From: an uncultured Candidatus Saccharibacteria bacterium
GTDB taxonomy: Bacteria; Patescibacteriota; Minisyncoccia; UBA6257; 2-01-FULL-56-20
Assembly: GCA_965231155.1 (NCBI GenBank)
Contig: OZ246418.1
Location: 302,850-366,849 of the forward strand
Reading direction: 5' to 3'
DNA length: 64,000 bases
The notes under the pieces were generated by a model. It had not been told where the DNA came from. It did no database searches and worked only from the letters and a program-made list of their open reading frames with translations. Shown here piece by piece: positions 1-49,549 of this stretch (the stretch's first letter is position 1; every line of letters starts with the position of its first letter). The position numbers and the translations under genes are program-made.

Positions 1-1
1 A

Positions 2-2050
2 GATGAGTGGAGTAAGGTCTACTGGGATGGAATACTCTCTGGTATTCCAAGTTTTCGTGGTGATGTAGAGATACTCTCCTGGAGCACCTCCGTCCTTCCA
101 GCGCTGGCTCGAGCGATTCTCAAAACTGCCACACCAAAAAATTTAGAGGTCATCTATCGATCACTTTCCCTAGAACGGGCCCGAAGCCTCCACGCTCTTT
201 TAATAGCGAGTGTGCCGGGAAACGATCTGCTCAAAAAAAAGGTGTGGCTCCAGGAGCAGAATCTGAACCTTCTCAAGTTTTTCAACACCAATACTGCCGG
301 CCTCTCTTTCGAAGCGCCAAACGAAAACCTCCTCTCTCGCCAAGGATTCGCACGAGCCCAGGTCTTACCTGAAAACCTTCTTAGCACCCTCTTCTCTGCC
401 GAAGTAGCTGGAAAAATCAGTGAGCTTGGTGGAGACAACAAACTCACCGAAGAACAGACAAGAAACGTAGCAGTAGTTTGTGGTTCGGTTGTCTTGGGGC
501 TTACCAAAATGGCCGATCTCTTGAAAATTGTAAAAGAAAAATGTCACACGGAAGAGTCTTTAAGTGTCATTATTCAAAAATCCCTCGAAGAAAAAATACT
601 TTCCCCTCTTAAGAAAGACATTGACGCCTCAGCTCCGCCAAATCCTTTTGCGGTCGGTGAAAATACATCAGCAACAGAAGGTGGGGGGGTAAACATTAAA
701 CCAGAGGTTCTCCCTACTAGCCCACGTATTCCTGAGGAAGGAAAGAAAAATCCGATCTTCTCTCCGCTTCCCGCAACAAACTCATCAGCAATTCCTCAGA
801 CACTTACCCAAAAAGCAAGCGAGCCATTTTTCAAAAAGTGGACCGGGGAAGAAAACACGAACCAACCGAAAGAAAAAGAGCCTCCAGTTGGACCAAAGAT
901 CATTCAGGAGGAGATGCGAGCACAGTCGTTGTCTGCAGCACCCAAACTAGGTTTCCGCGTATCTAACGATAAACTGGGAGAGGTGCAGGAAAAAGCGGCA
1001 CCTCTCAGAGCCGCCGAACTCACCATGTCAAACTCTTCGGGAGAGGCAGAACCATTAGCATCTTCTTCTCCCCGTGAAACTGGCCAAAAACTAGGTACAC
1101 CCATCTCTCCACTAGGGGCAAAACTCTCTATGGGCGGAGAGGGTTTTCCTAAGACAGCGGGATCCTCTTCTGGGTTTTTAGGGAAAATTCGAAATACTCT
1201 TTCTCTAAACAACACAAAGCCTTCAGAAGTCGCTAGTCAGATCTCAGAGCTAAAAGTTCCATTGCCACCGCCAGAGGCCACTTCGCCTATTTCCAAAATG
1301 GAGACAAAACCAAATGAACCAGTAAAGATTGCAGTTGCTGTTCCAGAAAAAGAAAAAGGATTTATGCCTTCTCAAGCAATACCCCTTTCTCCTGTGGAAA
1401 AAGAACCGGCACCAGTCACCCTTGCGACTTTAGAAGTTAAAAAAGAAACTCTCCAGGAAGCTCCTCTTATCACTGCACCAAAAGAGACTCCACCGCCACC
1501 GCCCTCAAAAATATCGCCTTCACCAACGCCCTTCAAAAATCCAACAGTTTCCGAGTCAGCGCTTCAACCAAAGACTTCTTCTGTAATGCCACGAATCGAC
1601 CTCAGAAAGATGAGCGATATTACTATTGAAAAAGTTCCCGCTCCAAAACCAGAAAGACAACCAGGATTTTTTAGTCGTTTGTTTAAAAAAGAATCGGCTG
1701 GTCAGAAAATTATCGTTAGCCCAGAAATAGAGAAGAAGCCAACACTCTCGCCTACAGCTACTAATACACCGAGAGAAGTGGTGCCACAAGAACACCCTAA
1801 CGCCCCGCTGCCTCCACCGCCACCGGCGCCACTGAAGACTCCTGAACTTCCAAAATCGATTGGAGAAAGTGCGGCTCGTCCTCTTCCCGTCCAAAAAGTT
1901 TCTCCGCTCACTAGCTTCCAGAAAAAACCAGAAGGACAACCTCCTCCACAGAATCCAGCTAAAGTAGTGGAAACAGTTTCTAGCACTCCTCGAGTGGTTA
2001 ACTACAGTGAGTACCCACTGCGAGACAATCCACTAAAACAATCTAATTAG
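2..2050 (+). CDS. Large proline-rich low-complexity protein (likely surface or secreted). The reading frame is open upstream of the track start at 212 (a GTG) all the way to the window edge, so the gene is probably 5'-truncated here.
   Basis: Frame of the 212..2050 ORF has no stop back to nt 2. It contains PPPP/SPSPTP-type Pro/Ser/Thr/Lys-rich segments and has no recognizable catalytic motif. It heads a same-strand array with the T4SS-like genes. Confidence 0.45.
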   Translation, partial: DEWSKVYWDGILSGIPSFRGDVEILSWSTSVLPALARAILKTATPKNLEVIYRSLSLERARSLHALLIASVPGNDLLKKKVWLQEQNLNLLKFFNTNTAGLSFEAPNENLLSRQGFARAQVLPENLLSTLFSAEVAGKISELGGDNKLTEEQTRNVAVVCGSVVLGLTKMADLLKIVKEKCHTEESLSVIIQKSLEEKILSPLKKDIDASAPPNPFAVGENTSATEGGGVNIKPEVLPTSPRIPEEGKKNPIFSPLPATNSSAIPQTLTQKASEPFFKKWTGEENTNQPKEKEPPVGPKIIQEEMRAQSLSAAPKLGFRVSNDKLGEVQEKAAPLRAAELTMSNSSGEAEPLASSSPRETGQKLGTPISPLGAKLSMGGEGFPKTAGSSSGFLGKIRNTLSLNNTKPSEVASQISELKVPLPPPEATSPISKMETKPNEPVKIAVAVPEKEKGFMPSQAIPLSPVEKEPAPVTLATLEVKKETLQEAPLITAPKETPPPPPSKISPSPTPFKNPTVSESALQPKTSSVMPRIDLRKMSDITIEKVPAPKPERQPGFFSRLFKKESAGQKIIVSPEIEKKPTLSPTATNTPREVVPQEHPNAPLPPPPPAPLKTPELPKSIGESAARPLPVQKVSPLTSFQKKPEGQPPPQNPAKVVETVSSTPRVVNYSEYPLRDNPLKQSN

Positions 2051-2110
2051 AATCTGCTTCCGAGGCCTGTTTTTCAGATGAGAATGAGCTAGTATATATA
2101 GGAAGCTCTC

Positions 2111-2635
2111 ATGCAATTTCAAGTTCCACAGTTTATCGAGGGAGAGGATATGATCATCGGCCCACTGAGCCTTCGCCAGTTCGGCTATCTCTGTCTGGCT
2201 GGTGTATTTAGCGCCATCCTCTATCTCACTATCGATCTTATCCCCTGGATACTTTTCTCGGTCGTCCTTTTTGCGATTGCTCTCGTTATTGGTTTTGTAC
2301 AGATTCAGGGACAGAGCATGTTCCGAATTATTGGCGCGTATCTTCGTTACTTCTGGCGTCCTCAGCACTATGTCTGGCAAGCACAGAAGCAAACAGCGAG
2401 TCAAAAAGATGAAGAACTTCGACTACTTGCCCCTCAGGGTTCGCCCCTGGAAAAAGTAGTTCTTGGTCTCTTTCTTCGCCAAAGCTGGCGAGAACTCCAG
2501 ACTGGCGAGACTAATGCAGCAGGGGAGAAAACTCCTGATGAAAAGATTAAAGAAACGGCCAAACAAGAACAGTACAAGATCTTCCGTCGTTTGACCGGAG
2601 AAAGAAATGCGGCCCGAAGGATCGACTATCGTTAG
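2111..2635 (+). CDS. PrgI-family (VirB3-like) T4SS membrane protein
   Basis: N-terminus QVPQFIEGEDMIIGPLSLRQFGYLCLAG is followed by two TM helices and a YxRYFWRPQHYVW-type segment. This matches the conserved pattern of the PrgI/VirB3-analog family of Gram-positive T4SSs. It sits directly upstream of the VirB4 homolog. Confidence 0.6.
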   Translation: MQFQVPQFIEGEDMIIGPLSLRQFGYLCLAGVFSAILYLTIDLIPWILFSVVLFAIALVIGFVQIQGQSMFRIIGAYLRYFWRPQHYVWQAQKQTASQKDEELRLLAPQGSPLEKVVLGLFLRQSWRELQTGETNAAGEKTPDEKIKETAKQEQYKIFRRLTGERNAARRIDYR

Positions 2636-2695
2636 GAGTAGTTTCTCTGGGGTCTGGCGATAGAATAATTAAGGGTTAGCTATTATACTTTAGAC

Positions 2696-3454
2696 ATGCC
2701 TCTTGATGCTCCCGCAAATAGTTTAAACCTCCTGGCCATACAGGAGATTCATCATGACTGTCTCGTCCTTAAAAGTGGCGGCTTGGTTCAGGTGCTTATG
2801 GTTGGAGGTACCAACTTCTCTTTGAAGCCAGAAAGTGAGCAAAATCTTCTCACTGCCTCCTACCAGAGATTTCTTAATAGTCTTGGCTTCCCAATTCAGA
2901 TTATCGTACACTCTCGAAAAGTTAACATCCAAAAATATTTAAGCAATCTAGAGAAACGACAGAATGAGGAGGTGACGCCACTTCTCCAAAGTCAGATATC
3001 GGAGTACCGCCAGTTTGTTGAGTCTTTCGTCAAAGAGAATCCGATTATGACCAAATCTTTCTTCGTGGTCGTTCCTTATTACGGCGCTGGCATCCAAATT
3101 TCTAAAAAAACAAGCGACGAGGCGGGCAAGAAGAAAGAGAAGTCGAGTTCTCCATTCAGCTTCCTTCCTTTCTTCAAGAAAAAAGAAGTGGAGGAAAAAC
3201 CTGTAGATGAGACAGCTCCCCAGGCCGGCGCGAACGAACCAATAGCCGATCTCAGCAAAGAAGAAGAGCAGAACTTTGCCAAGAGCCTTCTCCAGATGAA
3301 ACAACGAGTCAATCACGTAGTCCAAGGACTCGAGGCCATTGGCTTGCCGGTAAAGATACTCAACGACGAACAACTGATTGAACTTCTTTATAACTTCTAC
3401 AATCCAGAAACAACTGAGAAACGAGAAATGTCACTACCCGCTCACGGCGCCTAA
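2696..3454 (+). CDS. VirB4/TrbE-like N-terminal domain, as a separate ORF or 5' fragment of a split or frameshifted virB4
   Basis: The segment LVLKSGGLVQVLMVGGTNFSLKPESEQNLLTASYQRFLNSLGFPIQIIV resembles the N-terminal domain of Gram-positive VirB4 ATPases (PrgJ/TraE type). The ORF ends 2 nt before the ATPase ORF, which is in a different frame. Confidence 0.45.
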   Translation: MPLDAPANSLNLLAIQEIHHDCLVLKSGGLVQVLMVGGTNFSLKPESEQNLLTASYQRFLNSLGFPIQIIVHSRKVNIQKYLSNLEKRQNEEVTPLLQSQISEYRQFVESFVKENPIMTKSFFVVVPYYGAGIQISKKTSDEAGKKKEKSSSPFSFLPFFKKKEVEEKPVDETAPQAGANEPIADLSKEEEQNFAKSLLQMKQRVNHVVQGLEAIGLPVKILNDEQLIELLYNFYNPETTEKREMSLPAHGA

Positions 3455-3456
3455 CT

Positions 3457-5178
3457 ATGTCTGACTATAATTTTGAACACATTAAGAAAATCATCAGCCC
3501 TTCGGGCGCTGAAGTGAGTTCTAATCATCTTAAACTTGGGAGTAAATATCTGAAGACAATGTTTATTCACTCCTACCCTCGCTATCTGGCGACCGGCTGG
3601 TTTGAAGAACTGATCAACCTCCCAAACATTTTTGATATTTCCATCTTCGTTACTCCAGTAGAAACTGGCATCGCTATAAAAAAACTAAGGAAAAAAGCCA
3701 CCCAGCTAGAAGCGGAGCTTAATGACCGGGAAGAAAAGGGATTGGTGCGTGATCCCGTGTTAGAGACCGCCCTCCAGGACGTAGACACGCTTCGAGACTC
3801 ATTACAACAATCGACAGAAAAATTCTTTCAGATTGGTGTCTATCTGACTATCTATGCCGAAAGTCTTGAGGAGCTTTCCCAACTTGAGAGTCAGATTACT
3901 GGCATGATGGAAGCAAAGCTTATCTATATGAAGCACGCTATCTTCCAACAACTTGAAGGATTCTTCTCGATACTGCCATTCGTGGATGATCAGATTAATA
4001 TCACGACGCCAATGAACTCGGCGCCAATCTCTTCCTTCTTTCCATTCGTATCTGAAGATCTCACCTCAGATACTGGCATTATGTATGGCGTGAATCGTCA
4101 CAACAACAACCTCGTTATCTTCGATCGCTTCACGTTAGAGAATGCCAACCAGGTGGTCTTCGCTAAGTCTGGTGGTGGTAAATCCTATTCGACAAAGCTG
4201 GAACTGATCCGCCAGCTAATGATGGGCGTGGAAATCATTGTTATTGATCCAGAAAACGAATACAAGAAACTGGCCGAGGCTTTCGGGGGAAGTTTCTTTA
4301 ATATCTCGCTCTCCTCCCACGAGCATATTAATCCTTTTGATATTCCGATTATTCCCCAGGGGGAGTCTCCCGAGGATGTTCTTCGATCGCACATCGTCAC
4401 GATGGCCGGCCTGATTAAGCTCATGCTCGGAGGCACCGTAACCGCCGAAGAGGATGCCATCATCGACCGAGCGGTCACTGAAACCTACGCCTCTCGAGAA
4501 ATTGTTCCGGGACGTGATTTCTCGAAAGCCGAGCCGCCTCTCTTGGGGGACATGGAAACGGTTCTTAGGAATATGGAGGGTGGTCGACCAATTGCCGAAC
4601 GACTGTATAAGTTCACTCAAGGAAGCTTTGCTGGGTTTATCAACCAACCGACAAACATTGATGTGAACAACCGCCTGATCATCTTTTCTATTCGAGACCT
4701 CGAAGAGGAACTCCGACCAATTGCCATGTATGTCGTTTTAAACTTCATCTGGAATATCGTCCGAGCAGAACTCAAGAAACGTATCATGATGATCGACGAA
4801 GCCTGGATTATGATGAAACACGAAGACAGCGCTTCGTTCTTGTTTGGTCTCGTGAAGCGGGGCAGAAAATATTATTTAGGCATCACCACCATCACACAAG
4901 ACGTCGAAGACTTCCTGCGTTCTCCCTACGGCCGGCCGATTATCACCAACTCCTCCCTCCAGCTCCTTCTGAAACAGGCGCCGGCTTCTATCGATATTGT
5001 CGGGAAAGCATTCGATCTCAATGAAACAGAAAAAAATCTCATCCTCGCTGCCGAAGTAGGTACCGGACTATTCTTTGCCGGCAAGCGTCATGTCGCCATC
5101 CAGATTATTCCTTCTTACTTTGAAGACAAAATCATCACTACCAACCCAAAGGCCCTCCTGGAGGACGAGAAAAAATAG
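3457..5178 (+). CDS. virB4: VirB4/TrbE/CagE-family T4SS ATPase (C-terminal ATPase portion)
   Basis: Walker A motif VFAKSGGGKSYSTK. Hydrophobic stretch ending in Asp (MMIDEAW) consistent with Walker B. Overall VirB4-like C-terminal domain architecture. Length 573 aa, versus ~800 aa for a full VirB4. Confidence 0.85.
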   Translation: MSDYNFEHIKKIISPSGAEVSSNHLKLGSKYLKTMFIHSYPRYLATGWFEELINLPNIFDISIFVTPVETGIAIKKLRKKATQLEAELNDREEKGLVRDPVLETALQDVDTLRDSLQQSTEKFFQIGVYLTIYAESLEELSQLESQITGMMEAKLIYMKHAIFQQLEGFFSILPFVDDQINITTPMNSAPISSFFPFVSEDLTSDTGIMYGVNRHNNNLVIFDRFTLENANQVVFAKSGGGKSYSTKLELIRQLMMGVEIIVIDPENEYKKLAEAFGGSFFNISLSSHEHINPFDIPIIPQGESPEDVLRSHIVTMAGLIKLMLGGTVTAEEDAIIDRAVTETYASREIVPGRDFSKAEPPLLGDMETVLRNMEGGRPIAERLYKFTQGSFAGFINQPTNIDVNNRLIIFSIRDLEEELRPIAMYVVLNFIWNIVRAELKKRIMMIDEAWIMMKHEDSASFLFGLVKRGRKYYLGITTITQDVEDFLRSPYGRPIITNSSLQLLLKQAPASIDIVGKAFDLNETEKNLILAAEVGTGLFFAGKRHVAIQIIPSYFEDKIITTNPKALLEDEKK

Positions 5179-5181
5179 TGT

Positions 5182-6054
5182 ATGGAACGGGTTGAAAATG
5201 TAAGTTATCAGCTTGAAATAGATCAGATTAGAAACGCAACGGAGGCAGCTGCGGAGGAGCTTCGGGAGGAAATCCGGCGCAGCCATCATCCAACCGCCTT
5301 CTTTATCGTACTCTGTGTTGCGCTTCTAAAAGACTTCGGCGAAGGAGTTCTCACTCTTTTTATAATTGGTCTGATTGCTTCTCCTATCCTTGGTTTGGCT
5401 ATTGATCTTTTTTTGCGCCACCTAATGAAAAAATATGGGTGGTTTGAAACAAAAGCAGAGGTGGTGAAAAAAATTAAGTTCGTTTTTTACGGATTGAGTT
5501 TCTTCTTTGACAACCTTCCGGCTATTGGCGCCTTACCTCTTACTACTATTACCGTATTTTATATCCACCATCAAATCAAAAACCGAGGAAAAGAAGCTGT
5601 CGAAGAATTGGCGGAGTTGGAATATAGAATGTCTCAAGAGGTTGAGCGAGTTCGTGAGCAAATCGAGGAAGAAACACGAAGAAGGTCAGTGGAAGAGACG
5701 GAATTTCCTGAGGAGACAGAGTCTGAAACCTCAAGAAAAGAGCAAGCGACCCAATCCAGCGTAGCAATGAGACACCAAGCTGAAGAAACTGGAACGGAGA
5801 AACCAACGAACTCGAGAAATCAAACAGGAGAAAATACAGAAGAAACACCTGAAGAAATATTTATTCCCCAGGAAGTTCGAGATCCTCTTGGTAAACTGAA
5901 GCGAGACTACTTTGAGACATCACCAGACCAACCTCGCGAAACTCCAGAGAAAGATTCTTCCGAAAAAACTGGGAGTACTCCTCATAAGCCAAAATCAAAA
6001 ATGGACTTAACAGTAGAAAACGAAGACCGCTTCAGAAATAATAAAGCTGCCTAA
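5182..6054 (+). CDS. Polytopic membrane protein with a Glu-rich C-terminal tail; possible T4SS channel component (VirB6-like role is my inference)
   Basis: Several hydrophobic helices (FFIVLCVALL, LFIIGLIASPILGLAIDLFL, FVFYGLSFFF) followed by an acidic low-complexity C-terminus. The start is 4 nt after the virB4 stop. Confidence 0.35.
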   Translation: MERVENVSYQLEIDQIRNATEAAAEELREEIRRSHHPTAFFIVLCVALLKDFGEGVLTLFIIGLIASPILGLAIDLFLRHLMKKYGWFETKAEVVKKIKFVFYGLSFFFDNLPAIGALPLTTITVFYIHHQIKNRGKEAVEELAELEYRMSQEVERVREQIEEETRRRSVEETEFPEETESETSRKEQATQSSVAMRHQAEETGTEKPTNSRNQTGENTEETPEEIFIPQEVRDPLGKLKRDYFETSPDQPRETPEKDSSEKTGSTPHKPKSKMDLTVENEDRFRNNKAA

Positions 6055-6056
6055 CA

Positions 6057-7118
6057 ATGTCATCCTTCTTAACAATACTCATCACTCTGACTTTTTTATC
6101 TCCGTTGGTAGTATTTGGTGCAGACTACGAACTCCCCGCTCGTACCGCCTCAGAGACACTGACGCTACTGACTGGAGCCAGTCCAGCACGGGCGGTGAGT
6201 GATCTTTATAATTTTGCCTTAGGCATAGGTGCAATTGCTGCCTTTGGGTTAATCGTCTACTCAGCCCTCCAATACACCACCACAGATAGTCCGGGGAAGA
6301 GACAGGAGGCGCAGGGGAGAATCTTCCAGTCTCTATTAGGTTTGCTTCTTCTTATTGGTGCAACCTTGGTGTTGAGGTTTATTAATCCTGATCTTCCCAA
6401 CCTCAAGAATCCTGAAGCTCCGCAGTTGGAGGCGATACAGCTGGATACCACGTCTGAATCCTACTGGGTTCTCCAGAAATGCCCGGCGCTTCTACAAGAT
6501 TGCTCAAACGACCTCTCGTACGCTTTGGCTAGTGATCGTGGAGAATACAGTTCGAGAGTTTTGTGCGCTGAAGCAGGTAGTAGTACTATTGGTGGTACTG
6601 AACCAGGCTGGTGGCGATGTGTCGAGAGAACAAGGGATACTTCGGGCCTTGGCGGTACAGCGGGACCAGGATGCGAACCTATCCCTAACCCTGGAGTAGG
6701 CTCTGTCCAGTACATAGAGGAAAAGTTAGCAGGCACGCCCTATGCTGGTTGTTTCGGAGATAAGATTGCAAAAGCTTCAGGAATCATTGGCATAGAAAGT
6801 GGCGGGCAAGAAACTATTGAGAGTCGAACTGACAAGTGCAATCCAGCGCCCCCACGCAGTGTTTCTATTGGATTGTTTCAGATTAATCTCAGCGCTCACC
6901 ACCTTGGTTCTTTGCAATGTGCAAATAAGGCTATCCGTGGACAACTCCGAACAAGTCCAAACGACTGCACTATTATTGACGAGGTCCAGTATGGGCTCTG
7001 TCTGGCCGAGGCGAAAAAAGCCACACCAAATATTATTGAAGCTTGCAAGACTTTTAGAATGAAGAATAATTCCTTTCAGCTCTGGGGACCACAAACCAAG
7101 GAGAAGTGTGGAATTTAG
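6057..7118 (+). CDS. Secreted fusion protein with three parts: signal peptide, a two-helix pilin-like module, and a Cys-rich linker leading to a lytic-transglycosylase-like (lysozyme-fold) C-terminal domain
   Basis: N-terminal hydrophobic leader. A 104-aa module (YELPARTASE...APQLEAI) is identical to the paralog at 8319. The C-terminus carries an SLT-like motif pair, IGIESGGQETIESRTD and SIGLFQINLSAHH (compare ES...GLMQ of family-1 lytic transglycosylases). Confidence 0.5.
   Translation: MSSFLTILITLTFLSPLVVFGADYELPARTASETLTLLTGASPARAVSDLYNFALGIGAIAAFGLIVYSALQYTTTDSPGKRQEAQGRIFQSLLGLLLLIGATLVLRFINPDLPNLKNPEAPQLEAIQLDTTSESYWVLQKCPALLQDCSNDLSYALASDRGEYSSRVLCAEAGSSTIGGTEPGWWRCVERTRDTSGLGGTAGPGCEPIPNPGVGSVQYIEEKLAGTPYAGCFGDKIAKASGIIGIESGGQETIESRTDKCNPAPPRSVSIGLFQINLSAHHLGSLQCANKAIRGQLRTSPNDCTIIDEVQYGLCLAEAKKATPNIIEACKTFRMKNNSFQLWGPQTKEKCGI
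6126..6437 (+). repeat. Copy 1 of a 312-bp perfect direct repeat (pilin-like module coding sequence)
   Basis: 100% identical to 8373..8684 by direct comparison of the sequence. Flanking bases differ on both sides. Confidence 0.9.
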
Positions 7119-7150
7119 CTCTTATACCATTTGCGGTATAATACAGTGGT

Positions 7151-7639
7151 ATGAGAAAACAAGTTATCACTCTTGTGGTTATCATTGCCATTTGTCTTGG
7201 TCTCCTTTTTTTCATCATCCAGTTTTCTGAAAAACCAACTAATAACGTTTCTGATGTCGACGATCTCTCTGTTTTAGGAGATCGACCGAATCAAGACGTG
7301 CCAACCGGAAAGACCTTTATAATCCCTACAGAACAAGGCGATGTGATGGTAAAAAACTTTTTCAAAACTGGCCAACCCCTCAAAGGAGAGGAACCCGGGG
7401 TTCTCATAGAAGAAACTCCCGATTACACGATACTTTTTTATACGAAACAAAAAGAGGTGCTTATCTCCCTCACATCAAAACCAGTAATAACCGCGAAACA
7501 GAAAGCCGAAGAAGCCCTTCTTCGTCTTTTGGGCACATCCCAAGAAGATGCTTGCAAACTATTCTCTTCTGTCCGCACCACCGTCTATGTCGATCCAGAC
7601 TTGGCAGGTAGAGAACTTGGGTTAAGTTTCTGTAAATAA
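7151..7639 (+). CDS. Membrane-anchored hypothetical protein (N-terminal TM helix plus ~130-aa domain); possible VirB8-like position
   Basis: N-terminal helix ITLVVIIAICLGLLFFII. In the same strand and array as the T4SS genes. No motif recognised. Confidence 0.3.
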   Translation: MRKQVITLVVIIAICLGLLFFIIQFSEKPTNNVSDVDDLSVLGDRPNQDVPTGKTFIIPTEQGDVMVKNFFKTGQPLKGEEPGVLIEETPDYTILFYTKQKEVLISLTSKPVITAKQKAEEALLRLLGTSQEDACKLFSSVRTTVYVDPDLAGRELGLSFCK

Positions 7640-7644
7640 TAACC

Positions 7645-8322
7645 ATGAAAAAACTTCTCGCTATCTTCACTCTCGTCTTAGCTCTCTCCTTCCAAAGAAC
7701 CGAAGCTGCTGCACCAACCATGTTCCTGACCTGGAGAACGAACACCTATACTCCGAAAGACTATCCCGGAAAGGCCTTGGTTACTCCCGGATCGAATGTC
7801 ATTTTTTCTATAGAAGTACTGCAAGATGGAAAAATTCTCCCTCTAAAGACCATGATGATCCGTTGGTATGTGCAAGGACATCTTTATAAGAGTGGCCTTG
7901 GTCTTCAGTCATTTAATACATCCGCCAAGGTTCTCTCTGGAAATGATCTGAAAGTACGCGTAGAGATTCCGGACCTCCCAGGAGGCCCTCTTTCTAAAAC
8001 TATGCTTCTTCGAGTAACCGATCCAAAAGTGGTTATCGAAGCACCCTTCCCTGGTCTTATAACTCCAATCAAAGATTTCTTCGTCAAAGCAACACCCTAC
8101 TTTTTTTCCGTCCCTTCTGAAAAAAATCTGTCCTATCGCTGGACGGTCAATGGTAATGTCTTGCCCGAAGGATCGGATCCCCAACTAGTTTCTATAACCG
8201 CCAAGAATCTTCGTCAGTCAACCATTCGAACGCTTTCTTTCCAGATATCAGTAAAGAATCCTAATGAGGACTTCGACCAAACCGATGCCATTAAAACAAT
8301 AACCATTAAGGACACGCCATGA
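7645..8322 (+). CDS. Secreted hypothetical protein
   Basis: Signal peptide MKKLLAIFTLVLALSFQRTEAAAP. Its stop overlaps the start of the next gene (ATGA), suggesting translational coupling. Confidence 0.35.
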   Translation: MKKLLAIFTLVLALSFQRTEAAAPTMFLTWRTNTYTPKDYPGKALVTPGSNVIFSIEVLQDGKILPLKTMMIRWYVQGHLYKSGLGLQSFNTSAKVLSGNDLKVRVEIPDLPGGPLSKTMLLRVTDPKVVIEAPFPGLITPIKDFFVKATPYFFSVPSEKNLSYRWTVNGNVLPEGSDPQLVSITAKNLRQSTIRTLSFQISVKNPNEDFDQTDAIKTITIKDTP

Positions 8323-9350
8323 TTTCTACCTTACTTTCCTTTTTGGGCGCGACAAGGGTCTTTGCAGCTCCTTACGAACTCCCCGCTCGTACCGCCTCAG
8401 AGACACTGACGCTACTGACTGGAGCCAGTCCAGCACGGGCGGTGAGTGATCTTTATAATTTTGCCTTAGGCATAGGTGCAATTGCTGCCTTTGGGTTAAT
8501 CGTCTACTCAGCCCTCCAATACACCACCACAGATAGTCCGGGGAAGAGACAGGAGGCGCAGGGGAGAATCTTCCAGTCTCTATTAGGTTTGCTTCTTCTT
8601 ATTGGTGCAACCTTGGTGTTGAGGTTTATTAATCCTGATCTTCCCAACCTCAAGAATCCTGAAGCTCCGCAGTTGGAGGCGATAGGGGTAGCGAGTAGTA
8701 CCGCAGAGGGAGAAACCTCTTATTGGACAATTCAAGTCTGCCCCAAAAGAGAAGATTGTAGTGAAGAAGACTACGAAGACCTCGCCCCTAGAGATGAGGG
8801 CCATTATACCGACAGAAACGCGTGCCTAGGAATGAATACCGCCATTGGCGAAGAACCGGCTCGCTGGCGATGTGTCGAGAGATTTACTGGCCAACCAAGC
8901 GCCCTGGTCCCTATCGATGACAGTGTGGCTCAGCAAAGAGAGGAGGCGGTTCGCGCTCAACTTCGAGGATATGGAATTGAGGTCAACAACAAGGCCTGCG
9001 TCCCTTATACTGCCCGCTACCAGGACGTACCTGGAAGTTGCACAAATGTTGGAGGCCTACCAAACGGAGTTCTTTCAAAACTAGGAGTTCTTAATCCGCA
9101 GTTTCCAATAATCATTACTGGGGGGTCTGAAGCCGGGCATCTCTCTCACGGAGTAGGGGAGCCTTCGGTGGATATAAAACCTGCTCGTCGTAGCTCGCCA
9201 CCATCGGCAGGTTGGTGTGAACTTGAGAGGTTGGTTAAAGAATTAGGGATTGATGAGGCTCGGTCACAGTTTGAGTTACGCGGGGTGCCGCTCGATGCGG
9301 GCTGTAGAGCTAATCCGCCACCAGACCACTATCATGTACGCTTTGATTAA
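8319..9350 (+). CDS. Secreted fusion protein with three parts: signal peptide, a two-helix pilin-like module, and a Cys-rich linker leading to an M15/LAS-type zinc peptidase-like cell-wall hydrolase domain
   Basis: Same 104-aa module as 6057..7118. The C-terminus has SHGVGEPSVDI (compare SxHxxGxAxD) and DHYHVRF (compare EPWHxRY), the two zinc-ligand motifs of VanY/M15 D-Ala-D-Ala carboxypeptidase-like enzymes. Confidence 0.5.
   Translation: MISTLLSFLGATRVFAAPYELPARTASETLTLLTGASPARAVSDLYNFALGIGAIAAFGLIVYSALQYTTTDSPGKRQEAQGRIFQSLLGLLLLIGATLVLRFINPDLPNLKNPEAPQLEAIGVASSTAEGETSYWTIQVCPKREDCSEEDYEDLAPRDEGHYTDRNACLGMNTAIGEEPARWRCVERFTGQPSALVPIDDSVAQQREEAVRAQLRGYGIEVNNKACVPYTARYQDVPGSCTNVGGLPNGVLSKLGVLNPQFPIIITGGSEAGHLSHGVGEPSVDIKPARRSSPPSAGWCELERLVKELGIDEARSQFELRGVPLDAGCRANPPPDHYHVRFD
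8373..8684 (+). repeat. Copy 2 of the 312-bp perfect direct repeat
   Basis: Identical to 6126..6437. Confidence 0.9.
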
Positions 9351-9362
9351 TTATTCGAATCC

Positions 9363-10613
9363 ATGCTAAAACGTCTTTCATTCTTCCTTTCTATATTCTT
9401 GATTATTGGACTGGTTATCGCGATCGGCTGGTTTATCCGCTACCGAAATGCCTCACCCTCTCCAGATGCTACGACTACTCAGCCAGATGACATTCTTCCG
9501 CCTACTGGTCAAAATATCCGACCAGCCACCTCATCGCAGAACAGAAGCTCGAGCTCTCCTTCGATAATCGCTCCAGGAGAAAAACCGTTTGGTATGGTTG
9601 CCGACCAAGAAGTTGCCGCCTACTACCCCTACGCAGACGGCTCAGTCGCTTTCATCCAACCAAGCGGACAGGTGATAAAGATAAGTGGAACCGAGGGAGT
9701 AGTCTTAAGTTCTTTAAATATCTCCGACCTCAGTTATGCTGCCTTTTCTTATGACGGAAAAAGGATTGTGGCCGCTTTTGGAAATCCATTAAACCGCCAG
9801 TTAAGCGTTTTTGATTTAGAAAAAAAATCTTGGAATCCAATATTTGCTCGACCCCTTTCTGCACCTCTTTGGGCGCCTCGCGACTATCGAATCACATTTC
9901 TTACCGCAAATACAAATAATGACCAGATCATTACTGTTGTAGACACTCAACCAAATACCCCAAAAACACAGGAAATCCTCTCTCTTTCCGGACAGGACCT
10001 TGTTCTCTCCTGGAAAAATGATAATGAAATCTTTGTCTCGGAAAAAACAAGCGTCTTTTCTTTAGGAAGTCTTTTTTCTTTGGATATTAGGAAAAATACG
10101 CTTTCCTCACTTATTAAAGACTGGCCTGGCCTAGACTTTTTATGGGACACCACCTCTCAGGCTGGTGTCGCCTTCCAAGCAAATAAGAATAGCGTAGGAG
10201 GAACGATGAGTCTCCTGGGAGAGACGGGGATTGTCGCAAGAAAATTTTCCTTCACCACACTCCCTAAAGAAAAATGTTTCTTTGGTCCCGAGCCTACTCC
10301 ATTAACAACTACGAGTACATCCTCTTCGAGGACTCCACAGAAAAACCCTTCACCAAGAACAAGCCTCCTCTTCTGTGCTGTTCCGAAGAATGCTGACAGC
10401 TTCCTTTCTTCCTATCTACCGGACGCCTATTTCCAAAAAGAAATTATGACCGACGATAATTTGGTCGGAATCAATCTGGAAACGGGAGCGGTAACGGATC
10501 TTTCAAAACCAATAAATGAAGTGGTTGATGCAACTGATCTAAAAGCGAGCCGCACCTACATCTACTTTATAAACAGATATAACAACAAGCTCTACCGACT
10601 TATTCGCGCCTAA
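9363..10613 (+). CDS. Membrane-anchored hypothetical protein with a Ser/Thr-rich linker and a beta-rich (possibly propeller-like) ectodomain
   Basis: N-terminal TM helix FFLSIFLIIGLVIAIGWFI. Last gene of the plus-strand array. No catalytic motif. Confidence 0.35.
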   Translation: MLKRLSFFLSIFLIIGLVIAIGWFIRYRNASPSPDATTTQPDDILPPTGQNIRPATSSQNRSSSSPSIIAPGEKPFGMVADQEVAAYYPYADGSVAFIQPSGQVIKISGTEGVVLSSLNISDLSYAAFSYDGKRIVAAFGNPLNRQLSVFDLEKKSWNPIFARPLSAPLWAPRDYRITFLTANTNNDQIITVVDTQPNTPKTQEILSLSGQDLVLSWKNDNEIFVSEKTSVFSLGSLFSLDIRKNTLSSLIKDWPGLDFLWDTTSQAGVAFQANKNSVGGTMSLLGETGIVARKFSFTTLPKEKCFFGPEPTPLTTTSTSSSRTPQKNPSPRTSLLFCAVPKNADSFLSSYLPDAYFQKEIMTDDNLVGINLETGAVTDLSKPINEVVDATDLKASRTYIYFINRYNNKLYRLIRA

Positions 10614-10622
10614 CAGGAAACG

Positions 10623-11060
10623 TTAGTCGGTAATGGGCTTGATCATCACGTAGCGATCGCGACCGGCACCAAGGCTTTCCGTGGCCACCTCTGGGTGAAG
10701 GGCAAGGGCGGTGTGCACAAGACGACGTTCGTATGAGTTCATTGGGGGGAGTGAAAGAGCATTTTTTGTCGCCAACACCTTCTGGGCTGCTGCTCTAGCT
10801 AACTCAGTAATCAAGGCTTCTCGTTCCCGGCGATAGTTGTTGATGTCGAAGAATATTGGTTGAACGCTATTTTTCTTGGCAACCAACTGAATAATATGAT
10901 TGATGTCTTCAACGAGGCGAGCAATGCCCTCTTTATTCAAGGGTTCAAAATCATCGATCACGGCTGAGCCATGTCGAAACTCCTCGTTTACTTCTATCTT
11001 AAAAGACTTAAACCCAAGACCTTCAAGTAATTTTTTTACGAACACATCCCATTGTTCCAT
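10623..11060 (-). CDS. jag: Jag/KhpB-like R3H-domain RNA-binding protein
   Basis: C-terminal R3H-type motif MNSYERRLVHTALA...GAGRDRYVMIKP. Located downstream of yidC in the conserved rnpA-yidC-jag arrangement. Confidence 0.7.
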   Translation of the reverse strand: MEQWDVFVKKLLEGLGFKSFKIEVNEEFRHGSAVIDDFEPLNKEGIARLVEDINHIIQLVAKKNSVQPIFFDINNYRREREALITELARAAAQKVLATKNALSLPPMNSYERRLVHTALALHPEVATESLGAGRDRYVMIKPITD

Positions 11061-11250
11061 ACTGTTTGTGATACACGATTATTTAGTCGGAGTCAACTAT
11101 TCTCACTTTTGCTTTCTAGGACTGACGTAAAATTCTGACTGAGTTTTCGCCCTCCTCAAGCCGTCGCTTTCCGTAAGGTTCTAGAGAAAAAAGGTTCACG
11201 CTGTGTTTAAGATACTACACAAAGAAACCTATCTGTTTTGCCTACAAGAA

Positions 11251-11949
11251 TCAGACCTTGTCTGACCCTCCCTCCTTAAGTTGACGGTTTACCACAACCT
11301 GTTGGATGAGCGAAAATAGGTTAGAGGTAAGCAGGTAGAGCCAGACGGCTGAAGGGGAGGACCACAAAACCAAAACAATGATAATTGGGCCGATAATCGC
11401 CATCTGTTTACTCATTGCCGTAACATTCTTCTGGACCGAGAGACTCAACTGTGTCTGAATATACTGCAAAAGAGAAGCGATAATAATCAGTACTAAGCTC
11501 TGCGCCTGGAGATCAATGATGCCCAAGAAAGAGTGATTGAACGCAGTTGGAGCGTTGATAAAGGAGTAGAATTCTTTTGCATTCAACGTAGCCGGAGCGC
11601 CATGAAAGATCTGAAAAAGAGGGATAAGGATAAGAATTTGCAAAAAAAGAATGAAAAACATCGAGAAGGGGTTCACCTGATGCTTCTTATAGAGCTCCAT
11701 CTGGGCCCGTCCCTTATTCTCTATATCTCCTTGGTATTCTTTATCAATTTTTTCAAGCTCTGGGCGTAATGTCTGAATGACTGCCTGTTGCCGCATCGCC
11801 TTCTGGAAAAGTGGCAGGAAAATCACCCGGATAATGACGGTGAGCATAATGATCGCAATTCCCAAATCCTTAAAGGCAATTGACTGGTAGAGAAAAACCA
11901 GCGCGTTTATAAGCGGTTGGTAGAGAATAACGTGATAGAGATATCCCAT
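11251..11949 (-). CDS. yidC: YidC/Oxa1-family membrane protein insertase (short form)
   Basis: Polytopic 232-aa protein directly downstream of rnpA. Conserved synteny with rpmH-rnpA-yidC. Confidence 0.75.
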   Translation of the reverse strand: MGYLYHVILYQPLINALVFLYQSIAFKDLGIAIIMLTVIIRVIFLPLFQKAMRQQAVIQTLRPELEKIDKEYQGDIENKGRAQMELYKKHQVNPFSMFFILFLQILILIPLFQIFHGAPATLNAKEFYSFINAPTAFNHSFLGIIDLQAQSLVLIIIASLLQYIQTQLSLSVQKNVTAMSKQMAIIGPIIIVLVLWSSPSAVWLYLLTSNLFSLIQQVVVNRQLKEGGSDKV

Positions 11950-11958
11950 AAGTTTTTT

Positions 11959-12273
11959 TTAAAAGAGGGGGGTTAGCGTTTTTTCTAGACCCTCATTAAT
12001 CATTGCTTTCGTAGCTCCCTCAGCAGGCTTCTGAACAAGGATGAGAATGTCCTTTCCTTTGTTCGGCTTCTGCGCTAACCAAGAAACAACTATTCTTTTT
12101 AGATAGTGCCTTCTGGTAGCCTTCTTAACGGCACTTTTCCCAATAACTACGGCAAACCGGTTATACGGCCAACTATTATCAGAGGCCTTAACACTAAAGA
12201 ACGCGGAACGGAGGCTAAGAGAGCCTCTCTGAGGGAACTCTTTTGCCGGTAACCGCTGTCTTCTTGCCAGCAT
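11959..12273 (-). CDS. rnpA: Ribonuclease P protein component
   Basis: The C-terminal ~105 aa of the 184-aa track ORF ([13 protein letters not shown]...VVIGKSAVKKATRRHYLKRIV) matches RnpA. The start is set at the internal Met, which overlaps the rpmH stop (TAATG). Confidence 0.7.
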   Translation of the reverse strand: MLARRQRLPAKEFPQRGSLSLRSAFFSVKASDNSWPYNRFAVVIGKSAVKKATRRHYLKRIVVSWLAQKPNKGKDILILVQKPAEGATKAMINEGLEKTLTPLF

Positions 12274-12422
12274 TAAAATTTCCGCGCCTTGATGGTGATC
12301 TTCTTTCTGCCCTTTTGCCGACGTCGCTTCAAAACACTCTTTCCGGTAGCCGTTTTTTGACGGGCTCGGAAACCATGTGTCTTCTTCCGCTTCTTCTTTT
12401 TTGGTGAATATGTTTGTGACAT
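12273..12422 (-). CDS. rpmH: 50S ribosomal protein L34
   Basis: Hand translation of the minus strand gives [49 protein letters not shown], 49 aa. This is too short for the ORF track. It shows the characteristic KRTHGFRAR core. Confidence 0.75.
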
Positions 12423-12553
12423 GGTATGACCTTGAGTATAATGGCCTCACATAAGTTATGAACAGGCCATCAACATTTTTTTCTATTCTACTCTTTTGAC
12501 TCGCAGAAGACAAGTATTACAATAAGAGCGCTTCTTATAAACATTTTTAACCT

Positions 12554-13930
12554 ATGAACCTTGAACAGCTATGGCAACTGACGTTAGCAGAGATGGAAGT
12601 ACAACTTTCTCACGCTAACTTTGCAACATGGCTGAAGAAAAGCCAGCTTCTGGAGAATAAGGATGGAACATATTCAATTGGTCTCCCAAATACTTTTGCA
12701 AAAGTGTGGGTTGAGGAGAAATACCACAAAAATCTCTTGGGGATCATGCGTAATTTCGATGATTCCGTTCGTAAACTTGAGTTCACCGTACTCAAAGAAG
12801 ACTCCTCTCAGGAAAAGAAGGCGCCGACTCAAAAAACTCTTCGCCACGATACGACTCCAGTACAACCAATACAAAACAATCGGCTTGATTTTCGTGTTGA
12901 TCCCGACACTAATCTAAACCCTCGCTATACACTCTCTTCTTTTGTGGTTGGTTCCTCAAACGAGCTGGCCTTTGCCGCAGCCGAAGCCATTATTAAGTCA
13001 GTGGGAACAAAATATAATCCCTTCTTTATCTATGGCGGTGTCGGCGTGGGTAAAACTCATCTCATTCAGGCTATTGGGAATGAAATTTATACTCGCTACG
13101 AAAAGAAAATAAAACCTCGTTATGTTTCTTCTGAGAAATTCACTAGTGATGTGGTCTGGGCTATTCGAAACAAACGAATGGAGGATATTAAAAAGAAATA
13201 TCGAGATGTTGATGTGTTGATTATCGACGATATTCAGTTCATTGGTGGCAAGGAAAAAACTGAACAGGAGTTTTTCCATACCTTTAATGCACTCTATGAG
13301 GTTAACAAACAAATTATCATCTCCTCTGATCGACCACCACAATCAATTCCTACGCTCGAGGATCGCCTGCGCTCGCGTTTTGAGGGCGGCCTGATTGCTG
13401 ACATCACCTATCCAGAATATGAGCTTCGCCTGGCCATCGTCAGTGGAAAACTTCAGGAGCTTGGACACAGCCTCTCTCCTCAGGTGGTGGAACTTATCGC
13501 CAAAAAAGTGCGGAAGAATGTGCGCGAGCTTGAAGGAATCCTCACTAAAATAATATTTTATCAAGAGAGTAAGGGAGTAGAAGTAAGCGAAAAGCTTATC
13601 GAGGAGATTATCGATAATTCGATTAATAACTTCTCCCACAAAGTAAGCCCTGAACAAGTACTGAACGCTGTTGCCGAGTTTTTCAACATACAAATGAGCG
13701 ATCTTATTGGTCGCCGAAGACAAAAAGAAGTGGTCGAACCACGACAGATAACCATGTATCTACTTCGGGATATTCTTGGTCTTTCATACCCATACATTGG
13801 GGAAAAGATGGGGAGAGACCACACTACTGCAATTCACGCCTTCGAGAAGATTAACCATGAGGTGAACAAGAATTCTGTGCTCAACCAAAAAATTCTAATG
13901 ATTAAAGATTTAATTAATAAGAATCCATAA
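12554..13930 (+). CDS. dnaA: Chromosomal replication initiator DnaA
   Basis: Walker A GGVGVGKTHL, the AAA+ core, and a C-terminal DnaA-box binding helix-turn-helix. Divergent from rpmH and upstream of dnaN. Confidence 0.95.
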   Translation: MNLEQLWQLTLAEMEVQLSHANFATWLKKSQLLENKDGTYSIGLPNTFAKVWVEEKYHKNLLGIMRNFDDSVRKLEFTVLKEDSSQEKKAPTQKTLRHDTTPVQPIQNNRLDFRVDPDTNLNPRYTLSSFVVGSSNELAFAAAEAIIKSVGTKYNPFFIYGGVGVGKTHLIQAIGNEIYTRYEKKIKPRYVSSEKFTSDVVWAIRNKRMEDIKKKYRDVDVLIIDDIQFIGGKEKTEQEFFHTFNALYEVNKQIIISSDRPPQSIPTLEDRLRSRFEGGLIADITYPEYELRLAIVSGKLQELGHSLSPQVVELIAKKVRKNVRELEGILTKIIFYQESKGVEVSEKLIEEIIDNSINNFSHKVSPEQVLNAVAEFFNIQMSDLIGRRRQKEVVEPRQITMYLLRDILGLSYPYIGEKMGRDHTTAIHAFEKINHEVNKNSVLNQKILMIKDLINKNP

Positions 13931-14049
13931 AGAGGTTCTCCCCGAGTTGTTCGAAAGTTATTCACACAAAAAGATTTAAAAAAGATAGATAACAACAGTA
14001 TTTTTCAAATGTATCCCCTTATTCACAACCCTAATAAACTATAACAATA
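13931..14049. promoter_or_regulatory. Candidate oriC / DnaA-box cluster in the dnaA-dnaN spacer
   Basis: Two TTATTCACA 9-mers at ~13958..13966 and ~14019..14027, each one mismatch from the TTATCCACA consensus. They sit in an AT-rich spacer (aaaaagatttaaaaaagatagataac). Confidence 0.5.
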
Positions 14050-15162
14050 ATGAAATTAATAGTTATTAAAGATAATCTAAAAGAAGCGGTGGGGGCAGCG
14101 GGGCAGATGAAACTAAGCGAGCAGAACCTCCCAATTCTTAAAAATTTTTTATTGTCGGCGGTGGATAATAAAATTTCTATGAAGGCGACGAATTTGGAAA
14201 TTGGAGTGGAGTATTCTATCTCGGGGAAAATTTTAGAGGATGGTGAAATTACTGTTCCGATTTCGGTTTTTTACACGATTATTAATTCACTACAAAGCGA
14301 TCGGATTAATTTAGAAACGAAAGGAACTCAGACAACTATCAAAACTGATAATTATGAAGCGGTTATACAAGGACTTCCGGCTGAAGATTTTCCGATCCTT
14401 CCCGAAGTGAGTGCTAAAGAGCAGTTTTTGGAAATTAAGGGAGGAGTGCTTCGAGAAGCTTTTCAACAAGTTTCCTTGGCTGGGCAGTTCTCGGATCTTC
14501 GGCCAGAGTTGTACAACTTGCTTTTCCACTTCACAACCAGCGATTTGATTTTTGCGGCAACTGATAGTTTCCGTTTGGCCGAAAAGACAATTTCGGCAAC
14601 TTCTTTTTCCACAAATTTTGCCGATGAGTTTAAGTTATTAATTCCACTTCCCACAGTACAGGGATTAATTCCACTCCTTACCGATGAGCCGGTTCAGATC
14701 AGAAAAGACGACCATCAGGTGGTTTTTTCAACAAAGAACTGGAAGATTGTTTCACGTCTCCATACGGGAACTTTTCCACACTATGAACCGATTATCCCCA
14801 GGGAGTTTAAGGCCGAGGTGGTGGTTAATCGAGTGGAGCTTCAGGAGGCTTTAAAGCTGAGTAGCGTATTCGGAGGACAACTCCAGGAGGTTGTTTTGAA
14901 AATGGCTGAGGGACAAAAATCGTTAGAGGTTTTTTCTCAGAATCAGGCAATCGGCCAGAATGCCTATCGGTTAGGTGCAAAAATAAATCAACCATTTTCT
15001 ATGGAGGCAGTTTTTAATTCCCGATATTTAGCCGATGTGCTAAAGGCAATTTCTGGAGAAGAAGTTTTCTTTGGTTTTAACGAAGAAGGAAGGCCAGTAC
15101 TTATCAAGTCACCTCGAGAGGTGTCTTATATTTATATCTTAATGCCAGTACTTAAAGGCTAG
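14050..15162 (+). CDS. dnaN: DNA polymerase III beta sliding clamp
   Basis: 370 aa. Position immediately after dnaA. N-terminus MKLIVIKDNLKEAV is typical of DnaN. Confidence 0.9.
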   Translation: MKLIVIKDNLKEAVGAAGQMKLSEQNLPILKNFLLSAVDNKISMKATNLEIGVEYSISGKILEDGEITVPISVFYTIINSLQSDRINLETKGTQTTIKTDNYEAVIQGLPAEDFPILPEVSAKEQFLEIKGGVLREAFQQVSLAGQFSDLRPELYNLLFHFTTSDLIFAATDSFRLAEKTISATSFSTNFADEFKLLIPLPTVQGLIPLLTDEPVQIRKDDHQVVFSTKNWKIVSRLHTGTFPHYEPIIPREFKAEVVVNRVELQEALKLSSVFGGQLQEVVLKMAEGQKSLEVFSQNQAIGQNAYRLGAKINQPFSMEAVFNSRYLADVLKAISGEEVFFGFNEEGRPVLIKSPREVSYIYILMPVLKG

Positions 15163-43721: not shown

Positions 43722-43725
43722 GACT

Positions 43726-44238: not shown

Positions 44239-44272
44239 GGGTGTTTTATTCTCTGAAAATTGATTACAATGT

Positions 44273-44677: not shown

Positions 44678-44760
44678 GGATTTTTGATTTTGCTTCTTGA
44701 TATGCTATACTCTTTAAACATATAAAAGGTCGGTATTTCCTTATATTATTTTCAATTGTA

Positions 44761-45144: not shown

Positions 45145-45166
45145 TATCTTTAGAGATTATCTCTAC

Positions 45167-45195
45167 AAAAAAGACCCTTTTTGGGTCTTTTTTGT
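45167..45195 (+). terminator. Rho-independent terminator after pilin paralog 3
   Basis: aaaaaagaccc-ttttt-gggtct-tttttg. Confidence 0.6.
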
Positions 45196-45317
45196 TTCCA
45201 CTTTTTGATTCACAACGAAGCTCCTAACTGGCCTCCCATTATGCCTCTTGGATATGGGAGGGCAGTTAGGAGCGAGTCACTTGTTGCTTTTTTTGTCTTA
45301 CGGTAGAATAAATACTA

Positions 45318-45665: not shown

Positions 45666-45677
45666 CTTGATCTTTTT

Positions 45678-46229: not shown

Positions 46230-46230
46230 T

Positions 46231-46620: not shown

Positions 46621-46623
46621 ATC

Positions 46624-47800: not shown

Positions 47801-47820
47801 GTATTTACCTGCAATGTGCT

Positions 47821-49537: not shown

Positions 49538-49549
49538 GGCCGAGGCGAG

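Follow-up and report, generated by a model that had tools for sequence, protein, structure and literature searches.

A relaxase-less type IV secretion gene array beside the replication origin of a Patescibacteria genome, with two predicted pilin–hydrolase fusions

Introduction

A considerable part of bacterial diversity belongs to the Patescibacteria, whose members live attached to other microbes. A type IV secretion system (T4SS) encoded close to the replication origin is among the few machines for which an essential role in this lifestyle has been shown (PMC10633639). The present work deals with a T4SS-like gene array at one end of a 64,000-nt stretch of DNA (contig OZ246418.1, positions 302,850 to 366,849; this whole stretch is hereafter called the window) from an uncultured bacterium. 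In 2025, Quinonero-Coronel et al. described a Patescibacteria-wide clade of VirB4 proteins related to MPF-FATA, with adjacent genes for TrsD, PrgI/VirB3, VirB6 and VirB2-like pilins, the latter including PF18895 members and forming arrays of 2–11 genes (PMC12102498). According to the same study, VirB1 and VirB8 are rare in these systems, relaxases are almost absent and the genes of type IV coupling proteins (T4CPs) lie mostly at a distance from virB4, the T4SS of Paceibacteria and Microgenomatia being found near dnaA, dnaN, rnpA and ksgA; gene-dosage-driven expression and the import of host macromolecules were proposed (PMC12102498). Transposon sequencing by Wang et al. (2023) had shown that SEML1_0006–0019, a homologous locus without coupling protein or relaxase, is indispensable for Southlakia epibionticum to grow as an epibiont (PMC10633639). 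A 2025 review treats the Patescibacteria systems as a recognised T4SS type (PMC12857230), and tubular structures at the parasite–host interface have tentatively been called T4SS pili (bioRxiv 10.64898/2026.06.21.733656).

With a probability that we place at about 0.88, the locus studied here is a chromosomal relaxase-less T4SS typical of Patescibacteria, carried by a Paceibacteria/Parcubacteria-type genome, monoderm and related to MPF-FATA, in which the conjugation parts were lost or never present. A Patescibacteria-wide, relaxase-less T4SS near dnaA is already known, having been described between 2023 and 2025, and the window adds no new system. It provides a clean and complete Paceibacteria-type example with testable parts, namely two pilin-anchored proteins predicted to be wall hydrolases, a TolB-like propeller and a separate array of eight pilin genes. 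Beyond the published accounts, it adds the fusion of pilins to hydrolase-like domains through a 312-nt identical module, the TolB-like terminal gene, the eight further pilin genes and the orientation of the operon toward oriC.

A conserved block beside the replication origin

The array occupies positions 1–10613 of the forward strand and consists of ten co-directional open reading frames (ORFs), of which the first is open at the window start and ends at 2050, the other nine being complete (2111–10613) and spaced by −4 to 60 nt. An earlier note, made from the sequence of the window, had described a co-directional and tightly packed T4SS-like array of eleven genes running from the window start to 10613, and had proposed family profile searches. 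Such searches support the T4SS-like character, giving matches above curated cutoffs for VirB3 (PrgI), VirB4 and pilin proteins; the gene count comes to ten (nine complete and one running off the window start). The right end stands at 10613, but the array starts further upstream, since the Logan contig L001, which comes from the same genome and carries an identical VirB4 gene, adds at least 8.6 kb of co-directional sequence before the window.

Scanning one genome for each species yielded 80 related loci, all from Patescibacteria metagenome-assembled genomes and spanning Paceibacterota, Wolfebacteria, Harrisonbacteria, CPR2, Berkelbacteria, WWE3 and Saccharibacteria, and every gene of the window was compared with the related loci by tblastn. 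At least 8 kb of downstream sequence was available for 46 loci, and dnaA was in reach in 39 of these. The canonical order was found in 37 of the 39: a secreted-protein gene (U), VirB6-like, PrgI, TrsD and VirB4, then, after further genes, G7, a pilin and G9 (numbered by their place in the array), followed by convergent jag, yidC and rnpA and then by dnaA and dnaN. On its upstream side the block borders on pcrA/uvrD–ksgA, both in the closest relatives with data (VirB4 91% and 84% identical) and in five genomes at a greater distance. Median identities were 73% for VirB4, a value inflated relative to the other genes because the loci were picked through VirB4 peptides, 65% for DnaA, 55% for Jag, 46% for DnaN and 40% for YidC. 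Since 37 of 39 loci carry it flanked by ksgA and jag, with VirB4 about 73% identical, the block is, by its genomic context, a core-genome system and not an integrative element. The G+C content of the array, overall and at third codon positions, equals that of the housekeeping genes of the window. The stable, core-genome placement by the origin that the earlier note had suggested thus agrees with both gene order and composition.

The housekeeping boundary begins 10 nt past the last array gene and is formed by the convergent jag, yidC and rnpA genes (10623–12513, reverse strand), beyond which dnaA and dnaN lie on the forward strand, all five being confirmed by Pfam: Jag (R3H; 10623–11060, −), YidC (60KD_IMP; 11251–11949, −), RnpA (Ribonuclease_P; 11959–12513, −), DnaA (12554–13930, +) and DnaN (14050–15162, +). 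The cumulative GC skew is lowest at 12–14 kb of the window, and 7 of the 22 DnaA-box-like 9-mers of the window fall at 13958–15345, two of them (13958 and 14019) in the dnaA–dnaN spacer. The skew minimum and this cluster place oriC about 3.3 kb from the array end, the likely oriC region comprising dnaA, the spacer and dnaN (12554–15162).

In 37 of the 39 loci, transcription of the operon runs toward oriC and meets replication head-on; in the two exceptions dnaA is inverted and the operon still points toward it. Head-on placement is not what would be expected for maximal expression, and slow growers gain little from origin dosage. This orientation therefore qualifies the published gene-dosage explanation, which does not discuss it, and with head-on transcription conserved and slow growth offering little dosage gain, that rationale deserves a test.

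The ORFs of the 64-kb window that reach at least 200 aa include no VirD4/TcpA-type ATPase and no relaxase, in line with what the earlier note had reported, and neither a relaxase nor a T4CP was present in the 8.6 kb of upstream sequence, whose inspection the note had also proposed, or in the flanks of the relatives. The 30 further window ORFs of at least 200 aa either encode housekeeping proteins (among them PBP1A, YebC, PilB, RuvAB, PolA, Fpg, RNase J, GyrA, PNPase, RecA and FtsK) or gave no match. The sole FtsK/HerA-type ATPase beyond the array is a true FtsK with its gamma domain (63046–63951), and the sole tyrosine recombinase is XerC/D-like (54878–55798) and lies 44 kb from the array. Within these 44 kb there is no integrase, the block is not flanked by long direct or inverted repeats and the nearest tRNA gene is 27 kb away; an oriT is not recognisable without knowing the relaxase family. 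A relaxase or VirD4 together with attachment sites, which would have pointed to a conventional integrative and conjugative element (ICE), was thus looked for and not found, and the same flanks recur in relatives, so that the note's view of the array as something other than a conjugative element is upheld.

Parts of the machine

The central genes of the array encode the conserved membrane and motor parts. A small PrgI/VirB3-like membrane protein (2111–2635, +) matches Pfam PF12666 (PrgI) with E 1.7e-7 and 32.1 bits against a cutoff of 27, and a PrgI homolog lies upstream of VirB4 in 73 of 82 loci. It is followed by a TrsD-like protein (2696–3454, +; NCBIfam TrsD/TraD, E 3.8e-9; TraC-like in precomputed Pfam matches), which covers positions 103–232 only of VirB4_plasma (E 9e-12) and corresponds to the N-terminal part of VirB4 carried as a separate gene. 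The C-terminal motor part is the VirB4-family ATPase (3457–5178, +), which matches NCBIfam conju_CD1110 with E 7.7e-116 (388 bits, cutoff 325) as well as Pfam P-loop_TraG, AAA_10 and DUF87, and whose translation shows Walker A (SGGGKS) and Walker B (MMIDEAW) motifs. The TrsD-like piece is a separate gene in 80 of 82 loci, one fused form of 793 aa existing in P0058; judged from sequence lengths, the split is the norm, since the best 120 VirB4 homologs are about 570–580 aa long. More than 8000 VirB4 homologs were found, and the best 120 are 72–84% identical, nearly all named ones belonging to Patescibacteria/Parcubacteria (including Liptonbacteria) and one being labelled Anaplasmataceae by its source; clade membership was judged from these identities and from the genome scan rather than from a formal phylogeny.

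Encoded upstream of the window are a pair of secreted paralogs (at least 617 aa and 818 aa), a VirB6-like protein and the complete 734-aa Pro-rich protein whose gene enters the window. The two paralogs, U1 and U2 (L001 1–4408), represent the first operon gene, which is duplicated in this genome only (38% identity between the copies) and single-copy in 37 other loci. Members of this family are secreted proteins of 700–850 aa with a conserved Cys-containing core, and apart from a weak PKD-like match at the C terminus (E 0.008), nothing convincing was obtained against PDB sequences. The VirB6-like protein is polytopic, 649 aa long and encoded 3 kb upstream of VirB4, outside the window. A precomputed Pfam match to TrbL_3 exists for it and for its L083 ortholog, and 6 of 33 family members match TrbL or TrbL_4 weakly (E 2e-4 or weaker); the family profile gave nothing convincing against PDB sequences. 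From its topology, position and matches, identification as VirB6 is likely but not proven. Between this gene and that of PrgI lies U4, the gene of the Pro-rich protein (L001 6390–8594), whose 3' part occupies positions 1–2050 (+) of the window. U4 has a folded N-terminal region and a long Pro-rich low-complexity tail, shows no significant Pfam or NCBIfam match and is weakly conserved, with tblastn matches in 10 loci.

Downstream of VirB4, the array encodes several membrane or secreted proteins. G4 (5182–6054, +), a polytopic membrane protein by the hydrophobic helices of its translation, carries an acidic disordered tail and has no family match; its slot is filled by a gene in the relatives, but the sequence is not conserved. 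G6 (7151–7639, +), a small protein with an N-terminal hydrophobic anchor, also lacks a family match, and a single homolog was found (L084, 29% identity). G7 (7645–8322, +) is a secreted beta-rich protein with a visible signal peptide. Its homologs, found in 58 loci, usually stand immediately before the pilin gene; by gene neighbourhood G7 is a conserved partner of the in-operon pilin, and its family profile matched neither Pfam nor PDB. Every non-ATPase product of the block except U4 carries a signal peptide or a membrane anchor.

The last operon gene, G9 (9363–10613, +), encodes a predicted membrane-anchored TolB-like beta-propeller, with a homolog in 44 loci. Its family profile matches TolB chains with E 7.5e-7, and its AlphaFold2 model (8 sequences, pLDDT 74) shows a transmembrane helix, a disordered linker and a propeller whose best Foldseek matches are tricorn, DPP-IV and TolB propellers. 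Structure prediction followed by a fold search had been proposed in the earlier note for the membrane unknowns of the array; it was applied here to the product at 9363.

Eight tandem genes for free VirB2-like pilins of 115–198 aa lie at 43678–47738 (+). Each product has a signal peptide and a VirB2-like two-helix hairpin, PF18895 is matched by seven of the eight at E ≤ 0.03 (one above the cutoff, with 40.3 bits), and the free pilins align with the pilin modules of the operon. A distance of 33 kb separates this array of free pilins from the T4SS operon; the array belongs to the other replichore and comes directly after a solute-binding protein gene.

Two pilin–hydrolase fusions and an identical module

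Two genes of the array, G5 (6057–7118, +) and G8 (8319–9350, +), encode proteins with the same architecture: a signal peptide, a VirB2-like helical hairpin, a Cys-rich linker and an enzyme-like C-terminal domain. Both match T4SS_pilin PF18895 at the N terminus above the cutoff (E 3.4e-7 for G5 and about 3.5e-7 for G8). The earlier note had called them wall-hydrolase fusion proteins; the hydrolase-like domains are indeed there, and the partner is a VirB2-like pilin module. The pilin loop TTDSPGKRQEAQGR is positively charged, which, together with the Cys-rich linker, fits a location of the enzyme domains outside the cell.

The two C-terminal domains are unrelated to each other, and neither matches PDB sequences. 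That of G5 is SLT_3-like and contains the motif IES...GLFQI, and its L084 ortholog (38% identical) reaches SLT_3 at 4e-6 (27.6 bits, cutoff 27) in addition to T4SS_pilin and TrbC, which suggests a lysozyme- or lytic-transglycosylase-like domain. That of G8 has no match to any Pfam model, M15 and M23 included. A word-indexed homolog search returned the domain itself and one relative, and an exhaustive HMMER search was needed to obtain 110 representative relatives, of which 66 carry an N-terminal PF18895 and 11 a TrbC module; the family motif reads GGTExGHxxHGxGxxxVD...HWHV. In an AlphaFold2 model from 83 sequences, the hairpin and the C-terminal domain of G8 are both confident, and a match to the Hedgehog/DD-peptidase (LAS) fold with a conserved His/Asp/His zinc triad suggests that the domain is zinc-peptidase-like. 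A domain of this type thus recurs in at least 66 pilin-fused protein clusters and yet has no Pfam model.

The mature pilin modules of the two genes are encoded by a tract of 312 nt that is 100% identical between copy A in G5 (6126–6437, +) and copy B in G8 (8373–8684, +), with identity at chance level at its borders. Two short-read Logan contigs (L001 and L002) stop exactly 30 nt into copy A. In a second species (P0122), which has a G8 ortholog of the same architecture, the G8 pilin module is about 96% identical and the C-terminal domain just 62%. In L084, a second pilin gene comes after the G5 ortholog, and in 43 other loci the in-operon pilin is single-copy, 117–614 aa long and often provided with a Cys-rich tail alone. 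The simplest reading of the 312-nt identity would be either gene conversion or, under strong constraint, a recent swap of the module. That the tract and the pilin–hydrolase genes are instead an assembly artefact, a collapsed or chimeric repeat, is hardly credible: perfect identity between unrelated borders can come from mis-joins, but the breaks of two independent contigs 30 nt inside copy A are what a true repeat would give in a k=31 graph, the ORFs of G5 and G8 are intact and in frame, and both P0122 and L084 hold corresponding genes.

As a separate observation on the origin of the pilins, the pilin modules weakly match the Mycoplasma ICE protein Mbov_0395, a pilin-like conjugal transfer protein (NCBIfam E 3e-4, below cutoff), and VirB4 strongly matches the family of its neighbour Mbov_0397. 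The Mbov_0395 match and the Mbov_0397-type VirB4 hint that the pilin may be ancestral in a FATA-like lineage and not borrowed from diderm systems.

Possible function and alternative explanations

Some of the evidence weighs against the assignment to a Patescibacteria-type T4SS or against its details. The VirB4 identity owes part of its height to the choice of loci. The TrbL_3 match of the VirB6-like protein was not reproduced by our own hmmscan with a current Pfam copy, and no VirB8-like protein (PrgL/TcpC, NTF2-like) was found in Pfam, NCBIfam and PDB-profile searches of G4, G6 and G7, which were made at sequence level only. The C-terminal domain of G5 taken alone remains below the SLT_3 cutoff (E 0.016, 16.1 bits against 27), and the fusion-pilin modules are just about 21–29% identical to the eight free pilins. 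Finally, the search for a T4CP covered 64 kb plus 8.6 kb of the genome, and such a gene may lie elsewhere, as is reported for many Patescibacteria (PMC12102498).

What the sequences show directly are the parts present, their conserved position and the lack of parts for conjugation, and it is from these that we infer a machine that would build a pilus and serve host contact or transfer. The VirB4 hexamer would dock on PrgI and VirB6 in a single membrane, together with the TrsD-like piece, and would pull Sec-inserted VirB2-like pilins from the membrane to form a pilus or tube, a step that should need no coupling protein. In model T4SSs, VirB4-driven pilin extraction and polymerisation are independent of the coupling protein. 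The lysozyme- or lytic-transglycosylase-like and the LAS-fold zinc-peptidase-like domains would make up a glycan-cutting and peptide-cutting pair, and the pilin-anchored hydrolases, held at the machine or built into the filament, may open the cell's own wall and possibly that of the host. U1/U2, G7 and the TolB-like G9 would form an extracellular accessory part. The most likely role of the system is host-contact-dependent passage of macromolecules for epibiotic growth, not conjugation. DNA uptake, pilus display and effector delivery, the functions put forward in the earlier note, are also those considered in the literature (PMC12102498, PMC10633639). As for cargo and direction, two options deserve roughly equal weight: that host nucleic acids or other macromolecules are imported, and that proteins delivered by Sec are exported.

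One specific form of the first option is possible, though it takes the smaller share of our confidence: a dedicated nucleic-acid importer like Helicobacter ComB or Sulfolobales Ced, which would feed host DNA or RNA to a cell without nucleotide synthesis. The lack of export-type recruitment parts (T4CP, relaxase) is consistent with it, import is the function favoured for the Patescibacteria clade (PMC12102498), and feeding on host RNA has been proposed (bioRxiv 10.64898/2026.06.21.733656). The ATPase also matches CedB (E 4e-12) and CedD (0.018) in NCBIfam, but far below the cutoffs and as generic P-loop similarity, and no nuclease, DNA-binding or ComEC-like gene was found in the block. In S. 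epibionticum, moreover, comEC is dispensable and the T4SS essential (PMC10633639); for any import, an as yet unknown route through the inner membrane would then be needed.

About as tentative is a specific form of the second option, in which the system, like Bordetella Ptl and Brucella VirB, would be an exporter or contact weapon that needs no coupling protein and that breaches the host envelope by pushing Sec-exported proteins of the locus (the hydrolase-pilins, U1/U2 and G7) onto or into it. Export of periplasmic substrates by T4SSs without a T4CP is established (PMC12857230), the signal peptides or anchors on all non-ATPase products but U4 would suit such a route and two products have wall-degrading folds. 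On the other side, no recognisable toxin/immunity pair was found, U1/U2 and G7 are without known fold, and the hydrolases may serve remodelling of the cell's own wall alone, as VirB1 does.

A bolder idea, which we regard as doubtful, is that the fusion modules are true pilus subunits that enter a common polymer, with one another or with the eight free pilins, giving an enzyme-decorated T4SS filament that cuts host peptidoglycan at contact, with the 312-nt tract kept identical by gene conversion as both enzymes must fit the same assembly interface. If this is true, wall-degrading enzymes would be delivered in a new way, and pili on a monoderm T4SS would for the first time have a functional rationale.

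It is very improbable that the block is merely the remnant of an ICE or plasmid sitting near the origin by chance: its best NCBIfam VirB4 model is that of the CD1110 (CTn2 ICE) family, with the VirB4 family of Mycoplasma ICEs in second place, and the operon runs against the direction of replication, as insertions often do, but the block recurs in the same order between the same flanks (ksgA...jag–yidC–rnpA–dnaA) in 37 of 39 loci across several candidate phyla, has the composition of core genes and encodes a VirB4 more conserved (about 73%, with the inflation mentioned) than DnaA. This reading was rejected, the window, the upstream contig and the flanks of the relatives being without relaxase, T4CP, integrase, tRNA target or flanking repeats.

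Other features of the window

The 184-aa rnpA ORF (11959–12513, −) matches Ribonuclease_P at residues 100–181 only, and its true start probably lies within the ORF (MLARRQ...); no rpmH gene was located. A scan for promoters gave no enrichment (14 observed against 18.9 expected), terminator-like sites fall within genes and were not used, and an Rfam scan of the window returned tRNAs alone.

Five kilobases to the right of the origin and separate from the T4SS, a PilB-type T2SSE ATPase is encoded at 19424–21109 (+; E 1e-115), which indicates, from the family match, type IV pilus or competence-pilus machinery. At 47800–50100, the G+C content rises to 0.51–0.55 against a background of 0.46. This segment adjoins tRNA-Leu(tag) (50260–50342) and carries three reverse-strand genes, for a 144-aa unknown protein, a 386-aa SPFH/Band7 protein and a 171-aa unknown protein; it may be a small acquired island beside the tRNA gene. 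Five ORFs of 233–367 aa (33028–33807, 36504–37607, 51410–52297, 55916–56617 and 59971–60957) have no Pfam match at E ≤ 0.001, as is typical of a poorly annotated Patescibacteria proteome.

Comparison with known systems

At the system level, no difference from the Patescibacteria-clade T4SS was found. Both have VirB4 with an adjacent TrsD-like protein, PrgI/VirB3 and VirB2-like pilins that include a multi-gene array, and the VirB6 of the clade has a likely counterpart here; both lack a relaxase and an adjacent T4CP, and both are chromosomal and placed by dnaA, dnaN, rnpA and ksgA, here in Paceibacteria-type synteny. The differences concern details. The hydrolase-fused in-operon pilins, the terminal TolB-like propeller and the orientation of the operon toward oriC are not mentioned, as far as searched, in the two main descriptions (PMC12102498, PMC10633639), and two pilins here share a 312-nt identical module, whereas the pilins of published arrays are at most 54% identical in amino acid sequence.

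With the MPF-FATA systems (pCF10 Prg/Pcf, pGO1 Trs, CTn2/CD1110 and Mycoplasma ICE), the locus shares a VirB4 above the CD1110-family cutoff, TrsD, PrgI, the lack of outer-membrane core parts and wall glycosidase and peptidase activities, which are here predicted from sequence and fold. It differs from them by having no T4CP, relaxase, oriT or PrgB-type adhesin, by the presence of VirB2-like pilins, which are unusual for monoderm systems, and by being part of a chromosomal, immobile and phylum-wide system. Monoderm VirB1-type hydrolases (PrgK, TraG, CwlT) combine glycan- and peptide-cutting in one protein; here, the predicted pair is split over two pilin-anchored proteins.

The G8 domain can be set beside the LAS/Hedgehog–DD-peptidase group (MEROPS M15, VanX/VanY, phage endolysins, ShhN), from which it departs in lacking any sequence match to Pfam M15/M23 or PDB, in a His-to-Asp spacing of H-x7-D instead of the usual H-x3-6-D of LAS enzymes and in the invariant Glu of GGTE. 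Lastly, the T4SSs without T4CP (Bordetella Ptl, Brucella VirB) and those for DNA uptake (Helicobacter ComB, Sulfolobales Ced) share with the present locus the VirB4 motor and the lack of coupling protein and relaxase, but they are diderm or archaeal and have other accessory sets, no homology to the locus having been found beyond VirB3, VirB4, the likely VirB6 and VirB2.

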